UHGV virus genome: UHGV-1580312 | DNA length: 16,913 nucleotides | Strand: one strand, 5' to 3' | From: a virus | In this document: in pieces, positions 1 to 16,913 of the stretch | Layout: every line of letters begins with the position of its first letter | How positions within the stretch are numbered: the first letter of the stretch is position 1 | Made by a program: the position numbers and the translations under genes | The notes under the pieces: model-generated | Seen by the model: only the letters and a program-made list of their open reading frames with translations | Told to the model about the DNA's origin: nothing | The model's database searches: none

Positions 1-201
1 ACGCTGGAGCTGGTGTTCACCGCCGGCAGTGCCACGGTTACTCCGAAACTGAATGGAGTGGCTGGCCCGGCATTCCAGGTCATAAAAGACAGTCTGACAC
101 TGGGGCTGAATGCGCTGACGTTAACTGATATCACTAAAAATGCCGCGTACGGCGTCGATATCGGCAGCCTGGTGCTGGAAATCAATAATCCCGCAGCATA
201 A
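1..201 (+). CDS. 3' end of an unidentified ORF running off the window start (partial)
   Basis: Frame 1 is open from base 1 to TAA at 199-201 (...GVDIGSLVLEINNPAA*). No family recognised by eye. It sits immediately upstream of gpR, where P2-like phages carry lysis or accessory genes. Confidence 0.3.
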   Translation, partial: TLELVFTAGSATVTPKLNGVAGPAFQVIKDSLTLGLNALTLTDITKNAAYGVDIGSLVLEINNPAA

Positions 202-7486: not shown

Positions 7487-8086
7487 ATGCAAATTGGCTA
7501 TGTTCGTGTGTCAACAAATGACCAGAACACGGATTTACAACGCAATGCACTGAACTGCGCAGGATGTGAACTGATTTTTGAAGATAAAATCAGCGGAACG
7601 AAATCAGCCAGACCGGGATTGAAAAAACTGCTCAGAACGCTATCAGAAGGAGATACGCTGGTTGTCTGGAAGCTGGACAGACTGGGCAGAAGTATGAAAC
7701 ACCTGATCACGCTTATTGAGGAATTGCGGGAAAAAGGTGTTAATTTCCGTAGTCTGACGGACAGCATTGACACATCAACACCCATGGGGCGTTTCTTTTT
7801 TCACGTCATGGGGGCTTTAGCCGAAATGGAACGTGAATTAATTGTAGAGCGTACACTGGCCGGGCTGGCAGCAGCACGCGCACAAGGACGCATTGGCGGA
7901 CGTCGCCCGAAGTTGACAAAAGAACAACACGAGCAAATAGCGAGGCTGATTAAAAACGGTCATGACAGGAAACAACTGGCGATCATTTACGACATCGGCA
8001 TATCGACGATTTATCGTTATCACCCTGTAGGCGATATACAGGCTGAAGAAACAACCAGGCAGACTCAGGAAAATGAAAACCGCTAA
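7487..8086 (+). CDS. Site-specific serine DNA invertase (Hin/Gin/Cin/Pin/Min family)
   Basis: ATG at 7487 preceded by AAAGAGGA. The N-terminus MQIGYVRVSTNDQNTDLQ carries the catalytic Ser motif; ...GDTLVVWKLDRLGRSMKHL...FRSLTDSIDTS...MGALAEMERELI...GRIGGRRPKL and a C-terminal HTH are near-identical in pattern to Gin/Hin. The in-frame 5' extension to 7280 in the ORF track is antisense to cassette V4 and not credible as coding. Confidence 0.9.
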   Translation: MQIGYVRVSTNDQNTDLQRNALNCAGCELIFEDKISGTKSARPGLKKLLRTLSEGDTLVVWKLDRLGRSMKHLITLIEELREKGVNFRSLTDSIDTSTPMGRFFFHVMGALAEMERELIVERTLAGLAAARAQGRIGGRRPKLTKEQHEQIARLIKNGHDRKQLAIIYDIGISTIYRYHPVGDIQAEETTRQTQENENR

Positions 8087-8112: not shown

Positions 8113-8607
8113 TCAAAACAGCCCTTTAACGGAGCTGGCCGCGCTGTTAAGGGATGATGTGACCTTATCTTTGAAGCCGGACAGCATATCACTGAACGAT
8201 GAGGATTGCAGGCGCTCCCGCAAATCCTCATCACAGCGTTCAAGAGTCAGTGAAAACTCTATCTTTTTCGCCTTACCGTAGCGATCAAACTCGGAGCGGG
8301 TCGTATTCGTTCCGGTCAGGACATACATGCCGTAAATCTGCCCGACACCATCAATCAGAGGCCAGGGGCGTCCTGTATATGCCTGCGTGGTCAGCAACGA
8401 AAGCGACACTTCGCCACCTGTAATTTCAGGATAAAGCACACCAGAAAGAACGATGCGATCATCGCCTGCCCCGATATACTGCCAGCTTGCTGAACGGTTA
8501 ACGCGTTCATTTTTCACATGCCGCCAGCTTTTGTTTTGCTGTAACTGCTGATGCGGCAACGTACGCAGCTCAAAAACAAACATGCCGTAGATCATCATCA
8601 TGGCCAT
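8113..8607 (-). CDS. U: Tail protein, P2 gpU-like
   Basis: 164 aa; the N-terminus M(A)MMMIYGMFVFELRTLP... and ...VLYPEITGG... resemble gpU. It follows the tape measure gene as in P2 (T then U). The true start may be one of the internal Met codons. Confidence 0.8.
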   Translation of the reverse strand: MAMMMIYGMFVFELRTLPHQQLQQNKSWRHVKNERVNRSASWQYIGAGDDRIVLSGVLYPEITGGEVSLSLLTTQAYTGRPWPLIDGVGQIYGMYVLTGTNTTRSEFDRYGKAKKIEFSLTLERCDEDLRERLQSSSFSDMLSGFKDKVTSSLNSAASSVKGLF

Positions 8608-8613
8608 GACTCC

Positions 8614-11457
8614 TCAATCTTTATCGTAAAAACTGCCACGCCCGGCACGGGCGCGCCGTTCCATTTCTGCCCTGACCATTTCACCGACCAGTTTCGCCAG
8701 TTCGCGGGGATTCTGCGTAACAACGTTATGCAGATGAACATGAATTTCACCACCAAATCCGGAGGCAACAGGCTCCCGGTTACGGGAAGTTACAGGAACT
8801 GATGCCACTGGAGATCGTATGGCCTCCGCCACCGGGCGGGAGCTGGCCGCAACAACAGGGACCAGCGCCGGAGGCAGCGGAGCCGGGACCACGGGGGTGA
8901 TATTCATTGCGGGGGCAGGCTTACTGACCTGTGCAATCTTCCGCTCCTGCCACTCCCCACGAACAGCAAGTGCGCGGGGCAGGTTCTTAAAGACAATATC
9001 GCCGGGGCCAATACGTTTTTTTGTCTCATCAACCAGCTTACCTGTGTTATCAGCAATTTTGCTGAGTCTGCGTAGCGTGCCGGTATTGCTGTCTGTGAGC
9101 GGTTTGTTGTCTTTGGGTTTATCGCCTCCGGTGCCATTGCCATTTTCCGCAGACTTCGGCGGATTGATTTTCGCAATGTCTCCCTGAAACAGAGCAACCT
9201 TGTCCTGAAGAATGGCCGCACGCTGTGCGTCTTCGATTTTCTTTCTCGCCCTTTCCGCTTCATCCGGAAGCACACCGAGTTTTTCAAGTATCCACGCCAG
9301 CGTATCCAGCAACATTTTTGCAGGCGTCAGAACAAGCTGTAGCGCGCCACCAAGAGCGTTACCGAATATCTCGCCAGCACTGGTACATTTATCCAGCGTT
9401 TCCTTGCTGGACTCCATCGGTGACAGCAGCGATTTAAACCAGTTAAACACCTGGCTGATCCCGCTTCCGATTGCGTCAAAAACAGGACCAAACCGTTCAA
9501 AGGTTTCACGCAACGGGTTCAGCCTTTCCATAATCCCGCTGAACACCCCGGCAAAAAATGCCCTGATGGGATCCCAGTATTTCCAGATAAGAACGGCAGC
9601 TCCGGCAAGCGCAGCCACGATAAGACCAACCGGACTGAACAGCGCCCCGATAGCGCCTCCCAGCAAAGAAACGGAACCCGTCACCATTCCCCACAGCGCA
9701 GGCAACACCCTGACGACATTCATTGACCGGGTAAGAATGTCAAAACCAAGACGCAGGGTGGCCAGCTTCCCGTAAAGCACCCCAATAACCAGTGACAACG
9801 AGCCAATCGTTGCAGTCATTGCCAGCAACGCACCGCCTGCTATCAGTAGCTGGCGCGTCAGTACCGGATGGGCCTGCGCCAGCGAGGTGATTTTTTCAAG
9901 CACCCGCGTGAGCCACTGCGTGACAGAACGCAGCGGACCGTCAACCAGATCACTGATGCGAATACGAAGACCTTCCCATGCGCTGTCGAGATTTTTCAGG
10001 TCCCCATCAAGATTATCGGCCATTACTTTTGCAACGCGATCGGCCTCTCCCCTTGCCCCCTGCAATTCTCTGGTCAGTTTTTGCAGCTCTCCTGAACCAG
10101 CCGCCGCAACAAGCGTCTGCAAACCAACGAACGCCTCTTCTCCGGCGATGTCCTTGAAGAAGGAGACCTGGTCCACCTGTCCGTATTTTTGTGTCGCCTT
10201 ATAGAGATCAAGCAGCACATCCTCCATCGGGCGCATTTTGCCTCTGGCGTCAGCAACTGACACCCCCAGCTCTTTCAGTGCATCAGCCGCAGCTTTTGGC
10301 GGTGATGCAAGGCGGGACAGACTTGCGCGCATGGCCGTGCCAGCATCGCTTCCGCGAAGACCATTATTGGCAAGCATCCCAGCCATAGCCGCCGCTTCTT
10401 CAAGACTGATACCAAGTTTTGCGGCAACCGGACCGGTATACTTCATGGTTTCGCCCAGCGCGCGTAAATCAGTATTGGTCCGGGTGAATGCCGCTGTCAG
10501 CGTATCGCCAACCCGGTCCATTTGATCGGCTGTCAGGTTGAACTGTGTGAGGATATTGGAGCCTATATCCGCCGTCTCGCCGAGTTCGACGCCACCTGCC
10601 AGCGCCATATTAAGAACACCGGGCAATGCGGCCTGAATGGCCTGCGGAGTAAAACCAGCCATTGCCAGAAAGCTCTGCCCACTGGCGGCATCACTCGCAG
10701 TAAACTGTGTTTCAGAGCCAAGTTTTAACGCCTGCTCACGCAGCGCCTTAAACTGCGGGCTGTTTTTGTCGATTCGCGTCAGTGCCTGAACGCGGGACAT
10801 CTCTTTGCCGAACCCGATCGCAGGCTGCAAAAAACGCCCGGCAGCATAGCCGCCCGCCGCTGCCGCACCAATTGCCAGCGCACCACCTGTTTTCAGTTTT
10901 CCCGCGGTTTCCTGCGCGCGCGAATACCGCTCACGCGCCCGCGTTACACGCGCAAGCGCCTGCCGTTCGCGTTCAAGCTGGTTGTTGTACTGTTCGGTGC
11001 GTCTGATGGCCTGCTGGATGGTGTTATCGCTGCCTGTCAGGGAAATGCCGTGGCGTTTCAGCTCTCCGCCAAGCTCCCGCATTTTCTGAATTTCCCGTGT
11101 GCGCGATTCATTCAGGCGTTCAAGCCGGGTGCTTAACTGCTGCATCAGCTTTTGTTGTTTTTCGCTGAGCACTGTACCCGTGCGTTGTAACTGATTAAGG
11201 GCGTTAAGCTGGCGTCGTGCTTTCACGATACCCGCATCCGCTTTACTGACAGCGTCGCGGGCGCGCTCAAATGATCGCGCCTGACGCTCGAGATTTTTGA
11301 TCGCCCCCTGCGTTCGCTGGATGGAGTCACCAAACTGCCCCATCAGGCGGCGGGCGTTTTCGGCAGGCCGGGTCAGCCTGTCAACGGCGCTGAAAGCGAC
11401 CCGGATATCAAGAGTCTTCATTGTCTGCATTCCCGCTGCGAAGTGCCGCCCGCTCAC
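8614..11457 (-). CDS. T: Tail tape measure protein, P2 gpT-like
   Basis: 947 aa with a coiled-coil-rich N-terminal half (many Q/R/E/L/A heptads), hydrophobic central segments and a Gly/Ala-rich region. Position between E' and U. The listed start is GTG at 11457; ATG alternatives are at 11430 and 11421. The 5' end overlaps the end of E'. Confidence 0.85.
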   Translation of the reverse strand: MSGRHFAAGMQTMKTLDIRVAFSAVDRLTRPAENARRLMGQFGDSIQRTQGAIKNLERQARSFERARDAVSKADAGIVKARRQLNALNQLQRTGTVLSEKQQKLMQQLSTRLERLNESRTREIQKMRELGGELKRHGISLTGSDNTIQQAIRRTEQYNNQLERERQALARVTRARERYSRAQETAGKLKTGGALAIGAAAAGGYAAGRFLQPAIGFGKEMSRVQALTRIDKNSPQFKALREQALKLGSETQFTASDAASGQSFLAMAGFTPQAIQAALPGVLNMALAGGVELGETADIGSNILTQFNLTADQMDRVGDTLTAAFTRTNTDLRALGETMKYTGPVAAKLGISLEEAAAMAGMLANNGLRGSDAGTAMRASLSRLASPPKAAADALKELGVSVADARGKMRPMEDVLLDLYKATQKYGQVDQVSFFKDIAGEEAFVGLQTLVAAAGSGELQKLTRELQGARGEADRVAKVMADNLDGDLKNLDSAWEGLRIRISDLVDGPLRSVTQWLTRVLEKITSLAQAHPVLTRQLLIAGGALLAMTATIGSLSLVIGVLYGKLATLRLGFDILTRSMNVVRVLPALWGMVTGSVSLLGGAIGALFSPVGLIVAALAGAAVLIWKYWDPIRAFFAGVFSGIMERLNPLRETFERFGPVFDAIGSGISQVFNWFKSLLSPMESSKETLDKCTSAGEIFGNALGGALQLVLTPAKMLLDTLAWILEKLGVLPDEAERARKKIEDAQRAAILQDKVALFQGDIAKINPPKSAENGNGTGGDKPKDNKPLTDSNTGTLRRLSKIADNTGKLVDETKKRIGPGDIVFKNLPRALAVRGEWQERKIAQVSKPAPAMNITPVVPAPLPPALVPVVAASSRPVAEAIRSPVASVPVTSRNREPVASGFGGEIHVHLHNVVTQNPRELAKLVGEMVRAEMERRARAGRGSFYDKD

Positions 11458-11937
11458 GCCAGCTAACCACTTCGCCGGGCGTCATCATGAAGATTTCGGC
11501 GGGCGACCAGTTAAAAATGGCGGCAATATCCGCCACAAAGTCTTCTATGTGCTCAAAGCACACAACCGTGATCAGGCTTCCGTCGCCTGTTCGCTCTTCC
11601 CGCCAGAGTCCGCACCGCTCAAAAAATTTACGGCAACCACACATAACTGAATAAAATCACGGGATGCCATTTTTTTGATCGTCACTTCATCCAGTCGTGG
11701 CGAGGTCACGCGTGACAGCAGCGTAAACATGGATTCCGCTTTCAGATTCAGCACATCAGACAGCGACAAATCTCGCAGAGATCCAGCCTGCTCAATAGCC
11801 CCGGTGATCTCCACATACGTGATTTTTTCGCCGCCTCGCTCAATTGGTTGGGTAAGTTTTACGCCACGCTCACTGGTTTCTTTCACAGTGTCAGTAACTA
11901 CCGTGTTTTCGGTATCGATGTTTTTCGTCTCTTTCAT
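11408..11937 (-). CDS. gpE+E' fusion made by programmed -1 ribosomal frameshift (E' extension ends at 11408)
   Basis: The -1 frame relative to E is open from the slippery site to the stop at 11408 (...FFERCGLWREERTGDG...). Slipping at T-TTT-TTG changes ...VNFLSG to ...VNFFERCG. The E' end overlaps the T start, as in P2. Confidence 0.65.
11572..11937 (-). CDS. E: Tail assembly chaperone, P2 gpE-like (frame 0 product)
   Basis: 121 aa; ATG at 11937 preceded by AAGGAG. It contains the TTTTTTG slippery heptamer near its 3' end and sits between the tube and tape measure genes. Confidence 0.75.
   Translation of the reverse strand: MKETKNIDTENTVVTDTVKETSERGVKLTQPIERGGEKITYVEITGAIEQAGSLRDLSLSDVLNLKAESMFTLLSRVTSPRLDEVTIKKMASRDFIQLCVVAVNFLSGADSGGKSEQATEA
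11620..11626 (-). other. -1 programmed frameshift slippery heptamer T TTT TTG (E/E')
   Basis: Read directly from the sequence: minus strand ...GTA AAT TTT TTG AGC... This is the same heptamer used by P2 E/E' and is analogous to lambda G/GT. Confidence 0.65.
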
Positions 11938-11991
11938 CAGGAAACTCCTTTCAGTCAGAGGCGACGCACTGCGCCGCCTGCATATTACTTA

Positions 11992-12504
11992 TCAGCCAAG
12001 CCCGAGCGCGGAACGGATGCGATCGGGCACAATGTCCTTGCCGTCCTTCCGGTAGATGTGGTTCAACAGGTCGATTTCCCACAGCGGGCGATCGTTAACG
12101 CTCAGCTTGTAGTAGGTGTTTTTGACAGCGTAAGTGTGTGATGTGGCTTCGCCCTGTTTGGCCTCCCCCATATCAATTTCCGTCACACGCCCGCGCATCT
12201 CGATTTCATACAGATCGCTTTCTGCATCGGTGTAGTATTCACCCGCAAAACGCAGCAGCGTGCCGTCAATCGTGCCGCCATATTTAAGGAACAGCGCACG
12301 AACAGCTCCCCCCATGACAAAGCTCGCATCAAGCGCGGAGTCGTCCAGACCGAGATCAATACTTACCGCCCCCATCATGCCACCACCCCGGTAGCTGTCG
12401 GTTTTGCGCGTCAGCTTAGGCAGAGTGACGGACGTCACCTTACCCACTTCGTTTTCACCATCCACAAACAGCGTAAAAAAGCGAAGATGTTTTGGTACAG
12501 CCAT
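11992..12504 (-). CDS. FII: Tail tube protein, P2 gpFII-like
   Basis: 170 aa; ATG preceded by GGGAGG. The start overlaps the sheath gene stop (TGATG). Size and position are typical of gpFII. Confidence 0.85.
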   Translation of the reverse strand: MAVPKHLRFFTLFVDGENEVGKVTSVTLPKLTRKTDSYRGGGMMGAVSIDLGLDDSALDASFVMGGAVRALFLKYGGTIDGTLLRFAGEYYTDAESDLYEIEMRGRVTEIDMGEAKQGEATSHTYAVKNTYYKLSVNDRPLWEIDLLNHIYRKDGKDIVPDRIRSALGLG

Positions 12505-13688
12505 CAGGCACCTCCCAGCACCGCAAATGCGGGACCAAAGAATTCATCAGTAAACGTCTGGTAAAGCTCCATGTCTTCCAGTGGCGGAACGGGCGTATAT
12601 TTGTAGCGAATACGCACACGTCCCTGACGTAAATCCGTGGTGCCGTTATCCACCACGTCATACCAGCACTCCGCGCCAATCAGTTTCCCGGCAGTAACCA
12701 GCGAATCCAGTTTTGCCCTGATGGCACTGATAACATCCTTCACGTTCGCAGGCGTCAGTGGACTGTCGATGGTTTCAAACTGCGCTTCCGCAATTGAATC
12801 AGCCAGCACCTGTGCGGTTCGGGTATACACCTCAAAGATGTAGGCGTTCGTTTCCGGTGTGCGGTTGCCCCAGAAGCGGAACCCGTTGCGACGAATAATG
12901 GTCGTGATTTCTTTGTTGTTGAGGCTGTTGGCATCGCTGTCTTCGGCCTGCAACGACCAGAACACATGCCTGGACATCCCCAGCACATTTTTAACCGGAA
13001 CGTTGGACAGTGATTTGTGCCATCCCTGCTCATGGTCAATGTACGCACGAAGGCCGCACGCATAGGCAGGCGCGGGGAACGTTTCGTTTTTGCCACTTTT
13101 CGGGTTGTAGGCGATGAAGTCCGGCCATAAGAGCATCACCTCACGTTCGTTGAATTTCTGGCGGTAGGTAATCACCTCAGCCATCGTGTTACAGCCGTGA
13201 CATGAGGCATACACAAACGCGCGCAGTTTACCCGCAATCACGCACAGGGATTTTGTCACCGCCTCCGTGTCCAGCTCCGGCGCGGCCAGAATACGCGGAC
13301 GGTATCCGATGCTTTCATCCTGCTCTGCAACAAGCAGCGCATACATCCCCGTATAGCTGCCGTCAGATTCAGAACCACCGATAACCAGTTGATCCTGCGT
13401 CTTTCCGTCTTCTTCTTTGTGTTCAGCCACGCGAACGACGATCACCTTTGTGCTCACCTGGTCTGCGATGGCCTTAAGCGCACGATAAAGCGTCCCCGTT
13501 GTCCCGCATTTTCCCAGCACGTCATTGACGCGGGTCAGCAGTGTGGGCTTGTTCAGCGGGAACAGCTTCGCGTCCGCATCATCCGCCGTTGCCACGATAC
13601 CGATAACGCTGGAATCAACATCGTTAATCGCTGTTACCAGGTCGGTATTTTCCGTAACACGGGCACCATGAAAACGAGTTTCACTCAT
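12504..13688 (-). CDS. FI: Contractile tail sheath protein, P2 gpFI-like
   Basis: 394 aa; multiple blocks (...FPLNKP...LKAIADQ...PRILAAPELDT...KLRAF...WPDF...DHEQGWHKSLSNV...RRNGFRFWGNRT...YTRTAQV...YKYTPVPPLE...) match the sheath family pattern. Confidence 0.9.
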   Translation of the reverse strand: MSETRFHGARVTENTDLVTAINDVDSSVIGIVATADDADAKLFPLNKPTLLTRVNDVLGKCGTTGTLYRALKAIADQVSTKVIVVRVAEHKEEDGKTQDQLVIGGSESDGSYTGMYALLVAEQDESIGYRPRILAAPELDTEAVTKSLCVIAGKLRAFVYASCHGCNTMAEVITYRQKFNEREVMLLWPDFIAYNPKSGKNETFPAPAYACGLRAYIDHEQGWHKSLSNVPVKNVLGMSRHVFWSLQAEDSDANSLNNKEITTIIRRNGFRFWGNRTPETNAYIFEVYTRTAQVLADSIAEAQFETIDSPLTPANVKDVISAIRAKLDSLVTAGKLIGAECWYDVVDNGTTDLRQGRVRIRYKYTPVPPLEDMELYQTFTDEFFGPAFAVLGGA

Positions 13689-13845
13689 AGCTTTAGCCCC
13701 TTGTATCCGTTAAATGATTCGGCAACAATCATCACCCACCACGCGCGTAATCTCACCCCTGTGCCGTTCTCCCGATCCGGCGACAACAAAAAGCAGTAAC
13801 CCCCTCCGCACGCACATGCGACCATGCCGCACAGGGAGGGAACAG

Positions 13846-14955
13846 ATGACCGATACCACCATGCAATTGCTCAGTCAGGGCACAGACCCCGTGAAAATGC
13901 CGGATTTTGATATTCTCGCGGAGGGTAAAACGCTGTCAGGCGTGGCAGAGCGCCTGATGAGCCTGTCACTGACCGACAACCGGGGATTTGACGCGGACCA
14001 GCTCACCATCACGCTGGATGATGCGGATGGTCAGTTGCAGCTACCGCCACGGGGCGCGCGCCTGACGGTTCTCATTGGCTGGAAAGGAGAACCGCTGACA
14101 GAAAAAGGCACTTACATTGTTGATGAAATCGCTCACGAAGGACCGCCGGACAGGCTGACTGTTTCAGCCAGAAGCGCAGATTTTCGGGATGAATTTAACG
14201 TTAAACGTGAGGTGTCCTGGCATGATGTGACCGTTGAGCGTGTGGTATCCGCCATCGCTCATCGGTATGGTCTGAAACCGCAAATCAGCGAAATGCTGAT
14301 GGATATCGAAATCGACCACGCCGACCAGACCGAAGAAAGCGATATGTCCTTCCTTACGCGCATGGCGGAAATGCTGGGCGCAATCACCACGGTAAAAAGC
14401 GGCAATCTGTTATTCATCATGCCAGGTGGTGGCGTGAACGCACAGGGCCAGCCGTTGCCATCGTTCGCCATCACACGCAGCAGCGGCGATCGCCATCAGT
14501 TCCGCATTGCTGACCGCGAGGCGTATACGGGGGTACGCGCTTACTGGCTTGATCTTAATTACGGGAAAAAGAAAAAAGTCAGCGTGAAACGCCGCAAACC
14601 GCCAAAACCCAAAAAGGAGAAAAGCAGCAGCCGTGAAGGTGATTATATGGAAGGCGCGGAAGGCAATGTGTTTGTGTTACGCAAGACTTATCAGAACGAG
14701 CAGGCAGCAAGACGCGCAGCGGCGGCAAAGTGGCAGCAGCTACAACGCGGAGCCGCATCATTTTCCATCACGCTGGCGCGTGGACGTGCAGAACTCTACC
14801 CCGAAATGCATGGCACGGTAACAGGATTTAAAAGCGAGATTGATAATCAGGACTGGATTATTGCAAAAGCCGAGCACACCATTGATAACAGCGGCTTTAC
14901 CACGCAGCTTGAGCTTGAGGCAAAAATCCCGGAATGGATAGCAGAAACAGCGTGA
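13846..14955 (+). CDS. D: Tail/baseplate hub protein, P2 gpD-like (late control D family)
   Basis: ATG at 13846 preceded by GGGAGGG. Motifs ...SLSLTDNRGFDADQLTITLDDADGQ...ARSADFR...SWHD...ESDMSFLTR...ITRSSGDRHQF...YTGV...EGDYMEGAEGNVF...KWQQLQRGAASFSITLARGRA...SGFTTQLELE fit gpD-family proteins. The ORF-track start at 13714 is less likely. Confidence 0.8.
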   Translation: MTDTTMQLLSQGTDPVKMPDFDILAEGKTLSGVAERLMSLSLTDNRGFDADQLTITLDDADGQLQLPPRGARLTVLIGWKGEPLTEKGTYIVDEIAHEGPPDRLTVSARSADFRDEFNVKREVSWHDVTVERVVSAIAHRYGLKPQISEMLMDIEIDHADQTEESDMSFLTRMAEMLGAITTVKSGNLLFIMPGGGVNAQGQPLPSFAITRSSGDRHQFRIADREAYTGVRAYWLDLNYGKKKKVSVKRRKPPKPKKEKSSSREGDYMEGAEGNVFVLRKTYQNEQAARRAAAAKWQQLQRGAASFSITLARGRAELYPEMHGTVTGFKSEIDNQDWIIAKAEHTIDNSGFTTQLELEAKIPEWIAETA

Positions 14956-15008
14956 ATGTCTTAAATGTATTAGTTCAGATATGTACTAGCAATAAACATA
15001 GTTAGAAA

Positions 15009-15024
15009 GGCCGCTAACGCGGCC
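15009..15024. terminator. GC hairpin between the convergent gpD and AT-rich ORF (likely terminator for the minus-strand gene)
   Basis: GGCCGC-taac-GCGGCC; on the minus strand it is followed by TTTCT directly downstream of the AT-rich ORF stop. It is weaker as a plus-strand terminator. Confidence 0.4.
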
Positions 15025-15046
15025 ATATTAATTAAAACTCCAGTTA

Positions 15047-16216
15047 CTAATATTGAGAAAGATAATCAGCGACTCCATCTGCAGGGTTTCGCCCACCAGT
15101 ATAAATTGTGCCTAATTCTTGAGGTGTAACATATGTTGTAGGCCAAATGGCCATATTTTTAAAATAGTTATCTATTTTTATTCTTTGAAGTTCTTTAAAG
15201 AGATAATCTTCTAAGTCATTTCTTTTTAGACAGTTAACATAATAAGCAGCCGCACTTGCTACTATATCTACAATTTGTAATTGAGGATACTCTTGTGATG
15301 AATGGAATGTCAAAGAACGAGCTTTAATTGGCAATTCAAATTTTCTTCGATCATAACCATATGCCTCCGTAATTTTTGATATATCCATAAATTTATCAAA
15401 AATATCTTTCTTCTCTGTAATAGCTTTGGAATCGTCATGCTTAATATAAAAACCATTAGGGTATAATTTACCCCATTCTACACAGTGTCTAAAGAGGCTT
15501 GGTATAGATGGATCTAATGTGCTTTTCTCAACACCTTCCAATATATCATCAATATCGCTTCTGGTAATACTAATTCTGTTTATTATATCTGTGAATATCT
15601 TATCACTTGAGCATATCTTTAACTCATCAATTACCCTGTAAAATTCATCAATTGACTCAGTCGATTGGCTTCTGATCATATTCATAAAACACTGATACAT
15701 TACCTCTGTTTTTTCCTCCCCACAGAAAGCAGGGAAACAGAAATAGTAAACATTAGACAGAGCTAGATTCTGTCCATTTATATAAAGATCTATTCCTCTA
15801 TTAGAGCACCACGTCTCGATCAAAATATCAACAATCTTTGCTGTTAGCATGTATTTTTTATCGACCAAGTATATTTTAACATTCTCTTCATTGACATATT
15901 TGCTTTCAAGAAGCCTAATGATGCCATCCTGACCAGATTTTCTACGTCTAAGAGTTTTAAAGTGGGCTTCTGTTGGAGATTTGCTTCCGGTTAGTTCTAA
16001 TGCCTTAAGCGCATCCTGTTTACTAATACTACTTGAACTTAAGGTAAAAACAGGTTGCAATGGATCGAGTAAATTTCCGCCAGTATTACCTGATTCATCA
16101 AAAAATATATCAGGCTTTATATACAACATTTTATTTATCTTTGCCGCTAAGTTTCTTTTTTTCTCATTTTCTCGCTTAATTTTATTATCTCGCCTACGTT
16201 GACTATTCTTTCCCAT
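15047..16216 (-). CDS. AT-rich cargo ORF of unknown function; possible DE-motif (DUF3800-like?) protein
   Basis: 389 aa; ATG preceded by GAGGT; own hairpin terminator. GC is roughly 25-30% against roughly 55-65% in the flanking phage genes. It has a basic N-terminal 29 aa followed by MLYIKPDIFFDESG and later QIVDIVASAAAY. The family assignment is from memory only and unverified. Confidence 0.7.
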   Translation of the reverse strand: MGKNSQRRRDNKIKRENEKKRNLAAKINKMLYIKPDIFFDESGNTGGNLLDPLQPVFTLSSSSISKQDALKALELTGSKSPTEAHFKTLRRRKSGQDGIIRLLESKYVNEENVKIYLVDKKYMLTAKIVDILIETWCSNRGIDLYINGQNLALSNVYYFCFPAFCGEEKTEVMYQCFMNMIRSQSTESIDEFYRVIDELKICSSDKIFTDIINRISITRSDIDDILEGVEKSTLDPSIPSLFRHCVEWGKLYPNGFYIKHDDSKAITEKKDIFDKFMDISKITEAYGYDRRKFELPIKARSLTFHSSQEYPQLQIVDIVASAAAYYVNCLKRNDLEDYLFKELQRIKIDNYFKNMAIWPTTYVTPQELGTIYTGGRNPADGVADYLSQY

Positions 16217-16320
16217 AAATACCTCACAATCTGAATTAGATATCCCAATTTAACGCATTAATAACATAATGTTATGATATCACACAATCAAAATAACGTG
16301 CTGATTTTAATGTATCAGGT

Positions 16321-16351
16321 TTGACTAGCTATTCTTTGATAAGCGAATAAT
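16321..16351 (+). promoter_or_regulatory. Candidate sigma70-type promoter upstream of the ogr-like gene
   Basis: TTGACT (16321-16326), 19-bp spacer, AATAAT (16346-16351), about 100 bp upstream of the ogr ATG. The spacing is longer than optimal, so this is weak. Confidence 0.25.
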
Positions 16352-16448
16352 AAGAATGTCAGCCCCTCAACTCAAAGCGGTTTAGTCAGTTGGAATCGGA
16401 GCTAGTAGAACTTAAAATAACAGAAGCACCACGTTAAGGGAGGTCTCT

Positions 16449-16709
16449 ATGTTCCGTTGTCCGCTTTGTGGCGCATCTGCCCGTATCCGCACAAGTCGTC
16501 CGGAAAATGATTCAAACACCGTGCGGCAAAAGTATTACCAGTGTAACAACCTGGAATGCGGCGTATGCTTCTCAACACTGGAAGCCTTCCATAAATTCAC
16601 ATCAAAACACGCCTCCGCCGTTCACTCTTCAGAAGGTATCCCGTGGCATGAGCTGCCAGCTTCACACAGGGGAAACAATCAGATGAGTTTGCCTTTACCT
16701 CAGAACTAA
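16449..16709 (+). CDS. ogr: Ogr/Delta-family zinc-finger late transcription activator
   Basis: 86 aa; GGGAGG SD. MFRCPLCGASARIRTSR...YYQCNNLECGVCF gives the C-x2-C...C-x4-C zinc-finger arrangement and N-terminal pattern of P2 Ogr. Position after gpD at the prophage right end. Confidence 0.85.
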   Translation: MFRCPLCGASARIRTSRPENDSNTVRQKYYQCNNLECGVCFSTLEAFHKFTSKHASAVHSSEGIPWHELPASHRGNNQMSLPLPQN

Positions 16710-16899
16710 CAGGCAGAATTGCCGGATTAACAAAAAAGCGATAGATTACGCGCGGGTGCCTTTCGGCTGATGGTCGGAGGGAATACCCGAAGGCCAGATG
16801 TGGAAAGGCCCCGGAAAACATCTCTGTTTAACCGAGGCCCTAACCGCATTACCTTGACAAGTGAAAGGTTAGCGCCTCTCCGGAAAAGGAGCAAGTGCT

Positions 16900-16913
16900 A
16901 TGTCGCAAAAATC
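16900..16913 (+). CDS. Possible 5' end of a gene running off the window (ATG TCG CAA AAA ...)
   Basis: ATG at 16900 preceded by AAAAGGAG with good spacing. Only four codons are visible. Confidence 0.2.

Follow-up and report, generated by a model that had tools for sequence, protein, structure and literature searches.

The DNA considered here, a window of 16,913 nucleotides (nt) from the virus genome UHGV-1580312, is the right end of a P88-like (Xuanwuvirus, Peduoviridae) Escherichia coli prophage and takes in its tail and late end. Between the late control gene gpD and the late-gene activator ogr lies a cargo island with a single gene, which codes for a stand-alone, long-form DUF3800 protein of 389 amino acids (aa). 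Our proposal is that a self-contained cassette (one gene with its ribosome-binding site, the region upstream of it and a hairpin) would have been acquired horizontally into a swappable gpD-ogr slot, and that the lysogen would express from it a stand-alone, metal-dependent RNase H-like nuclease. The enzyme would protect the lysogen, and hence the prophage, from superinfecting phages or other mobile elements, and would cut an RNA-containing substrate, for example an RNA/DNA hybrid or a structured RNA. We have very little doubt about the identity of the cassette and of the protein family. A role in defence, directed against phages or other mobile elements, is somewhat favoured by genomic association, and the RNA-containing nature of the substrate is put forward tentatively.

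Comparison with related phages confirms that the island is a real feature, inserted between conserved flanks. In phage P88 the gpD stop codon abuts the ogr leader, and the two flanks align only 1 nt apart (blastn). Measured against this empty junction, the insertion occupies 14956-16407 (1452 base pairs, bp), with blastn breakpoints at 14955 and 16408 against L003. The left flank is gpD (late control D/tail protein; 13855-14955, plus strand; PF05954, E = 4e-17), part of an open reading frame (ORF) at 13714-14955 and with its start at 13855 taken from the annotated length in P88; it is 99-100% identical to the D gene of viral contigs with the same island. The right flank is ogr (16449-16709, plus strand; PF04606, E = 5e-14), and its conserved leader at 16408-16448 falls outside the insertion. 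An earlier note on this DNA had described a low-GC (guanine plus cytosine) island at this place, with 25-30% GC and a right edge at 16448; the island itself stands, with the edge moved to 16407 and a GC content of 33.2%, compared to 53.4% in the remaining window. From about 15000 to 16350, GC taken over 300-nt intervals drops to 0.28-0.35 from a level of 0.50-0.57, and GC at third codon positions (GC3) is 26% in the island gene and 58% in gpD. As the note had reported, the sole ORF of the island runs on the minus strand (15047-16216, 389 aa) and has its own Shine-Dalgarno sequence, GAGG, 5 nt from the ATG; the flanks within the island contain no further meaningful ORF among those of at least 20 aa.

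The same junction is empty in most relatives and filled by other genes in some. Both gpD and ogr were matched by megablast in 11 P88-like phage records (Xuanwuvirus and Gemsvirus; Peduoviridae), and the island is present in 0 of the 11. The flanks span 570 bp, not 2021 bp, in P88, PhiR44_2, Chuche, Shae_phiSM and P884B11, while phages 500465-2 and 520873 have other genes between gpD and ogr. Among 5426 complete E. coli genomes this type of junction was found in 1202, with at least one intact empty junction in 720 of these. The exact island occurs in 36 of the 5426, at an identity of at least 99.9%, in one copy each and always between gpD and ogr. Carriers include the O104:H4 strains C227-11, 2011C-3493 and HUSEC2011, and genome PO06021 is 100% identical across the 2-kb query, its prophage ending in the order gpD, DUF3800 gene, ogr, hok and then ihfA.

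Other sampled genomes have different single genes in the slot, at least seven in number. These encode a DUF2971 protein matching the PADLOC candidate PDC-S31, a protein of 340 aa that weakly matches HEPN_RiboL-PSP (E = 1.2e-4, under the Pfam cut-off), a YecA-family protein, and proteins of 132/221, 201 and 384 aa with no family match, the 221-aa one also being found in enteropathogenic E. coli E2348/69. About 30-40% of junctions are occupied, a figure that is an estimate from evenly spaced samples of the match lists and not a count. Unrelated genes between core genes of related phages, next to empty alleles of the same site, are the signature of a prophage cargo hotspot. Since the island gene is absent from P88 and most relatives, is replaced by other genes in some, and is foreign in both GC and GC3, it is cargo and not core, in agreement with the earlier note, which had left this to a comparison of D-ogr junctions. 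Its further suggestion that both site and gene might be undescribed is borne out in part: the family is known (RefSeq DUF3800, PHROG 12991), while the gpD-ogr junction is not named in the literature searchable here, including Rousset 2022, Vassallo 2022 and Moura de Sousa 2026. Egorov 2024 (10.1101/2024.10.15.618418) describes a “third hotspot”, and the junction may be this one.

Within the island, the gene travels with its surroundings. The segment 15006-16366 (minus strand), made up of the gene, 150 nt upstream and 41 nt downstream with a hairpin, has 80% nucleotide identity to a chromosomal defence island of Klebsiella (blastn), and this recurrence upholds the description of the gene as an autonomous moron. 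More distant orthologues have only the coding region in common. No terminal inverted repeats were found at the island ends. Given that the same frame is filled by genes unrelated to one another, the simplest route of exchange would be recombination through the conserved flanks, and such a route matches the rapid swapping seen at other P2 hotspots (PMC13586616). The Klebsiella island (L004 and L006; 9600-17000) is also located within a few kb of the integrase/CI end of a P2/186-like prophage (Phage_CI_repr, CP76, Fil), a nearness that could have helped the cassette to reach P2-like phages.

The frames on either side of the cassette belong to the slot. The first ~20-25 nt of the left frame (14956-15005) are common to alleles with different cargo, with homology up to 14977 in L001 and up to 14973 in L002. 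The right frame (16367-16407) is common to all cargo-bearing alleles and provides the -35 element of a candidate ogr promoter, TTGGAA-17-TAAAAT (16390-16418, plus strand), a sigma-70-like consensus match that spans the boundary between island and ogr leader and is kept as TTGGAG-17-TAGAAT in other alleles (TTGGAR-17-TARAAT). A short direct repeat of 7-9 bp, CAAYTTAGA, is found at both cargo borders in most alleles (alignments including L001, L002 and L014-L017) and as a single copy in the empty P88 site; it could have arisen as a target duplication, or represent microhomology through which cargo is inserted or deleted. We also considered the right frame as a degenerate duplicate of the gpD 3′ end, in the manner of an att-like duplication, and rejected this, as local alignment scores fell within the shuffle distribution for 4 of 4 alleles.

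The signals of the cassette itself are compact. Between the convergent gpD and DUF3800 genes, a perfect 6-bp GC stem (GGCCGC-TAAC-GCGGCC, 15009-15024) forms a hairpin that is probably a bidirectional terminator or an RNA stabiliser. The earlier note had called it the gene's own terminator; the hairpin is there, although with a minus-strand tail of only TTTCT it would be weak as an intrinsic terminator of the island gene. A stretch of 20-24 nt at the position downstream of the gene that the hairpin takes is conserved in the Klebsiella and L033 cassettes. At the other end, the Shine-Dalgarno sequence (16222-16225, minus strand), 5′ of the ATG at 16216, is kept as GGAGG or GAGG in the same two cassettes. 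The upstream regulatory region that travels with the gene (16217-16366, minus strand) contains a conserved imperfect inverted repeat at ~16325-16355 (minus strand), some 110-140 nt 5′ of the DUF3800 start, together with a candidate -10 hexamer. This hexamer belongs to a candidate sigma-70-like promoter, TTGAGT-17-TATTAT (16375-16347, minus strand), which is a match to the consensus and whose -35 element is just outside the region. The AT-rich putative promoter region placed by the earlier note at 16217-16320 is sequence that does move with the gene, and for a promoter there are only consensus-level candidates. In the Klebsiella cassettes the inverted repeat is perfect, CTCACTATTT-n14-AAATAGTGAG, and it could be an operator.

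Structured RNAs of the kind that associate with DUF3800 genes were looked for as well. Rfam models DUF3800-I to DUF3800-XI, drum and skipping-rope gave no match at E up to 10 in 14800-16913, and none at the gathering threshold in the window and four homologue loci. Folding of the upstream RNA was no better than that of shuffles (z = 0.73), a four-sequence alignment held no compensatory pairs, and conservation of the flanks does not reach past close relatives. The idea that the island holds a structured RNA of the DUF3800 type was therefore rejected.

The assignment of the protein to DUF3800, and its RNase H-like character, had been guessed in the earlier note from a basic N-terminus, a DESG motif and a QxxD motif, all of which are present and conserved. 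The Pfam model DUF3800 (PF12686) matches with 41.2 bits against a gathering threshold of 21, aligning aa 37-325 to model positions 2-148 of 149. PHROG 12991, of unknown function, is matched with E = 7e-187, and there is no match in NCBIfam. The protein also has no match to a TPR domain, a transposase family, a signal peptide or a virulence family. Full-length homologues with 42-86% identity are spread across Gammaproteobacteria, in Klebsiella, Citrobacter, Serratia, Proteus, Yersinia, Pseudomonas, Aeromonas, Shewanella, Vibrio, Halomonas and Psychrobacter. Searched with a profile, 1.84 billion cluster representatives yielded 1745 relatives at E up to 1e-3, most of which are ~360 aa long and start at about profile position 35. 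The first 35 residues of the island protein, with 13 lysines or arginines and a pI of 11.1, are accordingly read as an addition specific to the gammaproteobacterial clade, and since this N-terminus is conserved as protein within the clade, the ATG at 16216 is supported as the start. A shorter start at Met31 was considered, as the PHROG match begins at aa 33, and was rejected: M1, N4, S5 and R9 are at least 90% conserved down to 42% identity, and the GAGG is found at the upstream ATG.

An AlphaFold2 model of the protein (pLDDT 84.8, pTM 0.83) predicts a basic N-terminal helix, an RNase H-like core and a helical insertion. A long helix (3-32) is followed by strands 36-42, 56-62 and 113-119, a helix (120-139) and an all-helical insertion of ~100 residues (146-251); the C-terminal part consists of a strand (256-261), a hairpin (283-294), a further strand (299-305) and a helix (311-331). 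In the model these elements form a mixed beta-sheet (b1-b2-b3-aA-b4-...-b5-a) carrying acidic residues, as is found in the core of the RNase H-like superfamily, and the core is predicted to be closest in fold to type 2 RNase H. This prediction agrees with earlier ones for the family, which describe an RNase H2-like fold (PMC7736814) or an RNase H fold with rearrangement (PMC10910872). Both motifs of the family are present, the DE motif as D40-E41 within DESG (D40-G43) and QxxD as Q314-I-V-D317. Across 71 relatives with 25-47% identity, D40, E41, K120, E134, W248, D317 and P359 are invariant, while G43, N44, T45, G46, D130, D261, S263 and Q314 are at least 90% conserved. From the topology of the model we infer that the canonical RNase H-like carboxylate positions are held by D40/E41 on strand 1, E134 on helix A, D261 at the end of strand 4 and D317 on the helix that follows strand 5.

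Orthologue neighborhoods provide the link to defence. In Klebsiella the gene is positioned beside smpB, in the ssrA region, directly 3′ of Shango (SngB, 2e-186; SngC, 6e-280) and Septu (PtuA, 8e-172; PtuB, 3e-78). In Aeromonas the orthologue is part of an island with an integrase, located at tRNA genes, where it has a TIR_2 protein on one side and Hachiman (HamA, 4e-114; HamB, E = 0) on the other, and the orthologue of Vibrio cholerae adjoins a type I restriction-modification system and IS110. In a metagenomic island (L051), an orthologue is accompanied by LmuB (Lamassu-like), and 3′ of this comes a distantly DUF3800-like protein matching the PADLOC candidate PDC-S51. Yersinia orthologues are found in plasmid or Tn3 settings with an FRG-domain protein. 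Prophage settings recur too: in Proteus the gene is a moron 3′ of the tail-tip gene J of a lambdoid prophage, in viral contig L036 it is 3′ of a gpD homologue together with Fic and an AAA_15/21 ATPase, and in the lambdoid-type viral contig L035 (6001-8701) a 69%-identical orthologue adjoins a gene for DUF2971, which takes the place of DUF3800 at gpD-ogr in other E. coli prophages. Altogether, the orthologue directly adjoins Shango, Septu, Hachiman, type I restriction-modification or Lamassu-like genes in 5 of about 10 contexts, and four contexts are prophage moron sites, in a small sample taken without a statistical background. No partner gene is conserved, so the DUF3800 protein would act alone or with host factors. 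The distant DUF3800-like protein of the metagenomic island (L051, 3840-4952; 370 aa) is itself encoded 16 nt 3′ of the LmuB_C (Lamassu) gene and 3 kb from the orthologue, matches PDC-S51 with E = 5e-109, and may be a Lamassu-type effector.

Weighing these observations, we favor a nuclease that defends the lysogen. Its substrate is suggested to contain RNA because the DE[S/A]G strand resembles that of type 2 RNase H and because the family is repeatedly linked to RNA and to multicopy single-stranded DNA (msDNA); even so, this part of the proposal is possible rather than probable. Several results count against the proposal as a whole. The island protein matches 0 families of PADLOC-DB 2.0 at E up to 1, and it has no sequence relative in the Protein Data Bank (PDB). 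Foldseek gave no significant PDB match, the best being RNase HII at E = 0.2, and hhalign with E. coli RNase HII, using a query checked against 7uwe_C, gave a probability of 0.2%. Clustering of the acidic residues is drawn from topology rather than from distances in the model. Expression in the lysogen is likewise presumed, and the promoters are candidates at the level of the consensus. In Pseudomonas, Shewanella and Photobacterium, the orthologue contexts contain no recognisable defence genes, and the searched literature reports neither a biochemical activity nor a phenotype for DUF3800, stand-alone proteins included. Separately, a fold search of BFVD returned only other uncharacterised DUF3800 proteins, and no Pfam RNase HII match was found. 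A sequence-level link to RNase HII was rejected for want of Pfam, PDB-sequence or hhalign support, leaving a likeness at the level of the fold.

Among the other explanations, an enzyme that benefits the phage itself, by serving the lytic cycle or disarming a host system (retron msDNA, guide RNAs, R-loops), is unlikely, if slightly less so than the rest. In favor of this, the gene is phage-borne and next to ogr, the late activator; enzymes of the RNase H-like kind are able to clear RNA/DNA hybrids, and retrons and CRISPR are among what P2-like prophages encounter in E. coli. The gene is nevertheless absent from ~97% of related prophages (present in 36 of ~1200 genomes), and for this reason is not needed for lytic growth; it is convergent to gpD and transcribed from its own region, and its orthologues are also found in chromosomal defence islands, plasmids and non-phage islands. 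Such placement is more typical of defence than of anti-defence genes. That the gene is a neutral hitch-hiker, or a lysogenic-conversion gene acting on host physiology or virulence and unrelated to phages, is given a low probability. Pathogenic lineages such as O104:H4 do carry it, and many morons have no known role. Against this, 36 of 36 genomes have an uninterrupted ORF with an identity of at least 99.9%, neither a signal peptide nor a virulence family was matched, and full-length conservation across Gammaproteobacteria down to 42% identity, with acidic residues invariant, indicates purifying selection on an enzyme.

A similarly small chance is given to an RNA-controlled toxin, in which the DUF3800 nuclease would belong to an addiction or abortive-infection module and be restrained by a cis-encoded non-coding RNA from the ~150-nt upstream region, in the manner of type III toxin-antitoxin systems. 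Such a module would mainly stabilise the prophage, and it overlaps with defence. The idea draws on the eleven unrelated structured RNA motifs that are specifically associated with DUF3800 genes (PMC5737381), and on the 150 nt upstream, which accompany the gene in both E. coli and Klebsiella and include a conserved inverted repeat; it is opposed by the lack of any Rfam DUF3800, drum or skipping-rope match in the window or the four homologue loci, by the shuffle-level folding and missing compensatory pairs described above, and by flanks that are conserved only in close relatives and in some orthologues are only ~100-120 nt long. Finally, it is very improbable that a selfish mobile element, an RNase H-fold transposase or a homing-type nuclease, inserted its own gene between D and ogr. 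DDE transposases also have an RNase H-like fold, the cassette of ~1.4 kb contains one gene, and the CAAYTTAGA repeat is present at the cargo borders of several alleles. The reading of the island as a transposon or insertion sequence was rejected, given the lack of terminal inverted repeats and of a transposase family match and the occurrence of just one copy in each genome, at an unvarying site; nor is there conservation in the flanks of orthologues. As unrelated genes occupy the same frame, it is the slot and not the gene that explains the position.

Other parts of the window fit the setting of a P2-like prophage. A hok/sok-type toxin-antitoxin locus is located 3′ of ogr (16754-16913, plus strand) and runs past the window end. 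Its sok-like RNA match scores 48 bits, under the Rfam cut-off of 59, and the Hok/Gef ORF begins at 16900 and is cut by the window end; RefSeq annotates Hok/Gef just before the prophage/ihfA boundary. A recombinase/invertase gene (7487-8086, plus strand) is found amid the tail-fibre genes, a position that agrees with the Z/fun-type hotspot of P2-like phages (10.1101/2024.10.15.618418). The block of sheath, tube, tape measure and gpU genes (8113-13688, minus strand) is on the opposite strand to gpD, and the sheath and gpD have the same orientation in P88, 500465-2 and 520873. Between the lysis and tail genes, a 626-aa DUF6645 protein is encoded (L018, 3622-5502), of which only the last ~200 nt are in the window (1-201); this may be another accessory gene.

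The significance of the island lies in its simplicity. DUF3800 recurs in prokaryotic immunity, in type VII retrons, as an accessory of Cas12a2/a3 and type VI systems, and with eleven unrelated structured RNAs. The E. coli cassette is the simplest DUF3800 form, one gene with its own signals in a P2-like prophage of well-studied strains, and can be cloned and tested directly. The gpD-ogr slot offers a well-populated, little-described set of single genes of unknown function that can be screened likewise. It is a serious possibility, falling a little short of an even chance, that the gene is a new single-gene anti-phage system cleaving infection-specific, RNA-containing nucleic acid in the manner of RNase H, and that gpD-ogr is an unnamed hotspot of P2-like phages, filled in about a third of the P88-like prophages of E. 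coli, with at least eight mostly unknown single-gene cargos. If so, more defence genes could be drawn from one small slot, and the DUF3800 family, which has long lacked an explanation, would become accessible to study; should the gene prove to be without effect on phages, it is no more than a common prophage moron.

Compared to known P2 hotspots, the gpD-ogr slot is alike in lying between core genes, in swapping unrelated accessory genes among near-identical phages, and in the foreign GC and own signals of its cargo. The named hotspots are gpA-gpQ (old/tin), the tail-gene site Z/fun and minor int-proximal sites (PMC9122126, PMC9519451, PMC13586616). The slot described here differs in its position at the att-proximal right end, and in that its cargo, in the alleles seen here, is always a single gene, with almost none matching a validated defence system.

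Members of the DUF3800 family have been described as predicted RNase H-like nucleases with which 11 unrelated structured RNA motifs, themselves of no known role, associate (PMC5737381), as predicted nucleases that partner type VII retron reverse transcriptases or are fused to them (PMC7736814), and, fused to TPR domains, as accessories of Cas12a2/a3 and some type VI CRISPR loci (PMC10910872, PMC13594972, PMC12669027). The island protein has the defining DE and QxxD motifs and passes the Pfam threshold. It represents a stand-alone long form of ~360-390 aa with the ~100-residue helical insertion, and the 35-residue basic N-terminal helix is found in the gammaproteobacterial clade only, most of the 1745 cluster representatives being without it. 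The type VII retron (reverse transcriptase, non-coding RNA and DUF3800) shares the domain family, and its DUF3800 protein is a predicted nuclease effector in a defence context; in contrast, the island has no reverse transcriptase, msr/msd, second gene, or Rfam or PADLOC retron match, and the island protein contains the QxxD glutamine that is absent from retron proteins (PMC7736814). With the TPR-DUF3800 proteins of CRISPR loci it shares the catalytic-domain family and the association with immunity, but the island has neither a TPR domain nor cas genes or a CRISPR array nearby, and its neighbors are phage tail and late genes.

The island protein differs from type 2 RNases H (RNase HII/H2A/HIII) in having no detectable sequence-profile relationship to them and in carrying the large insertion of helices. 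Its invariant residues include E134 on helix A, a feature in common with type 1 enzymes, and nothing suggests that it has the specificity of RNase HII for hybrids or junctions. PDC-S51 is a single-gene candidate system whose protein is distantly DUF3800-like (hhalign E = 7.7e-5 over the C-terminal catalytic motifs), whereas the island protein matches no PDC-S51 model and shows no pairwise BLASTP similarity. What is of a known kind here is thus the prophage hotspot cargo and the DUF3800 family, and the island gene is a plausible new single-gene defence candidate.

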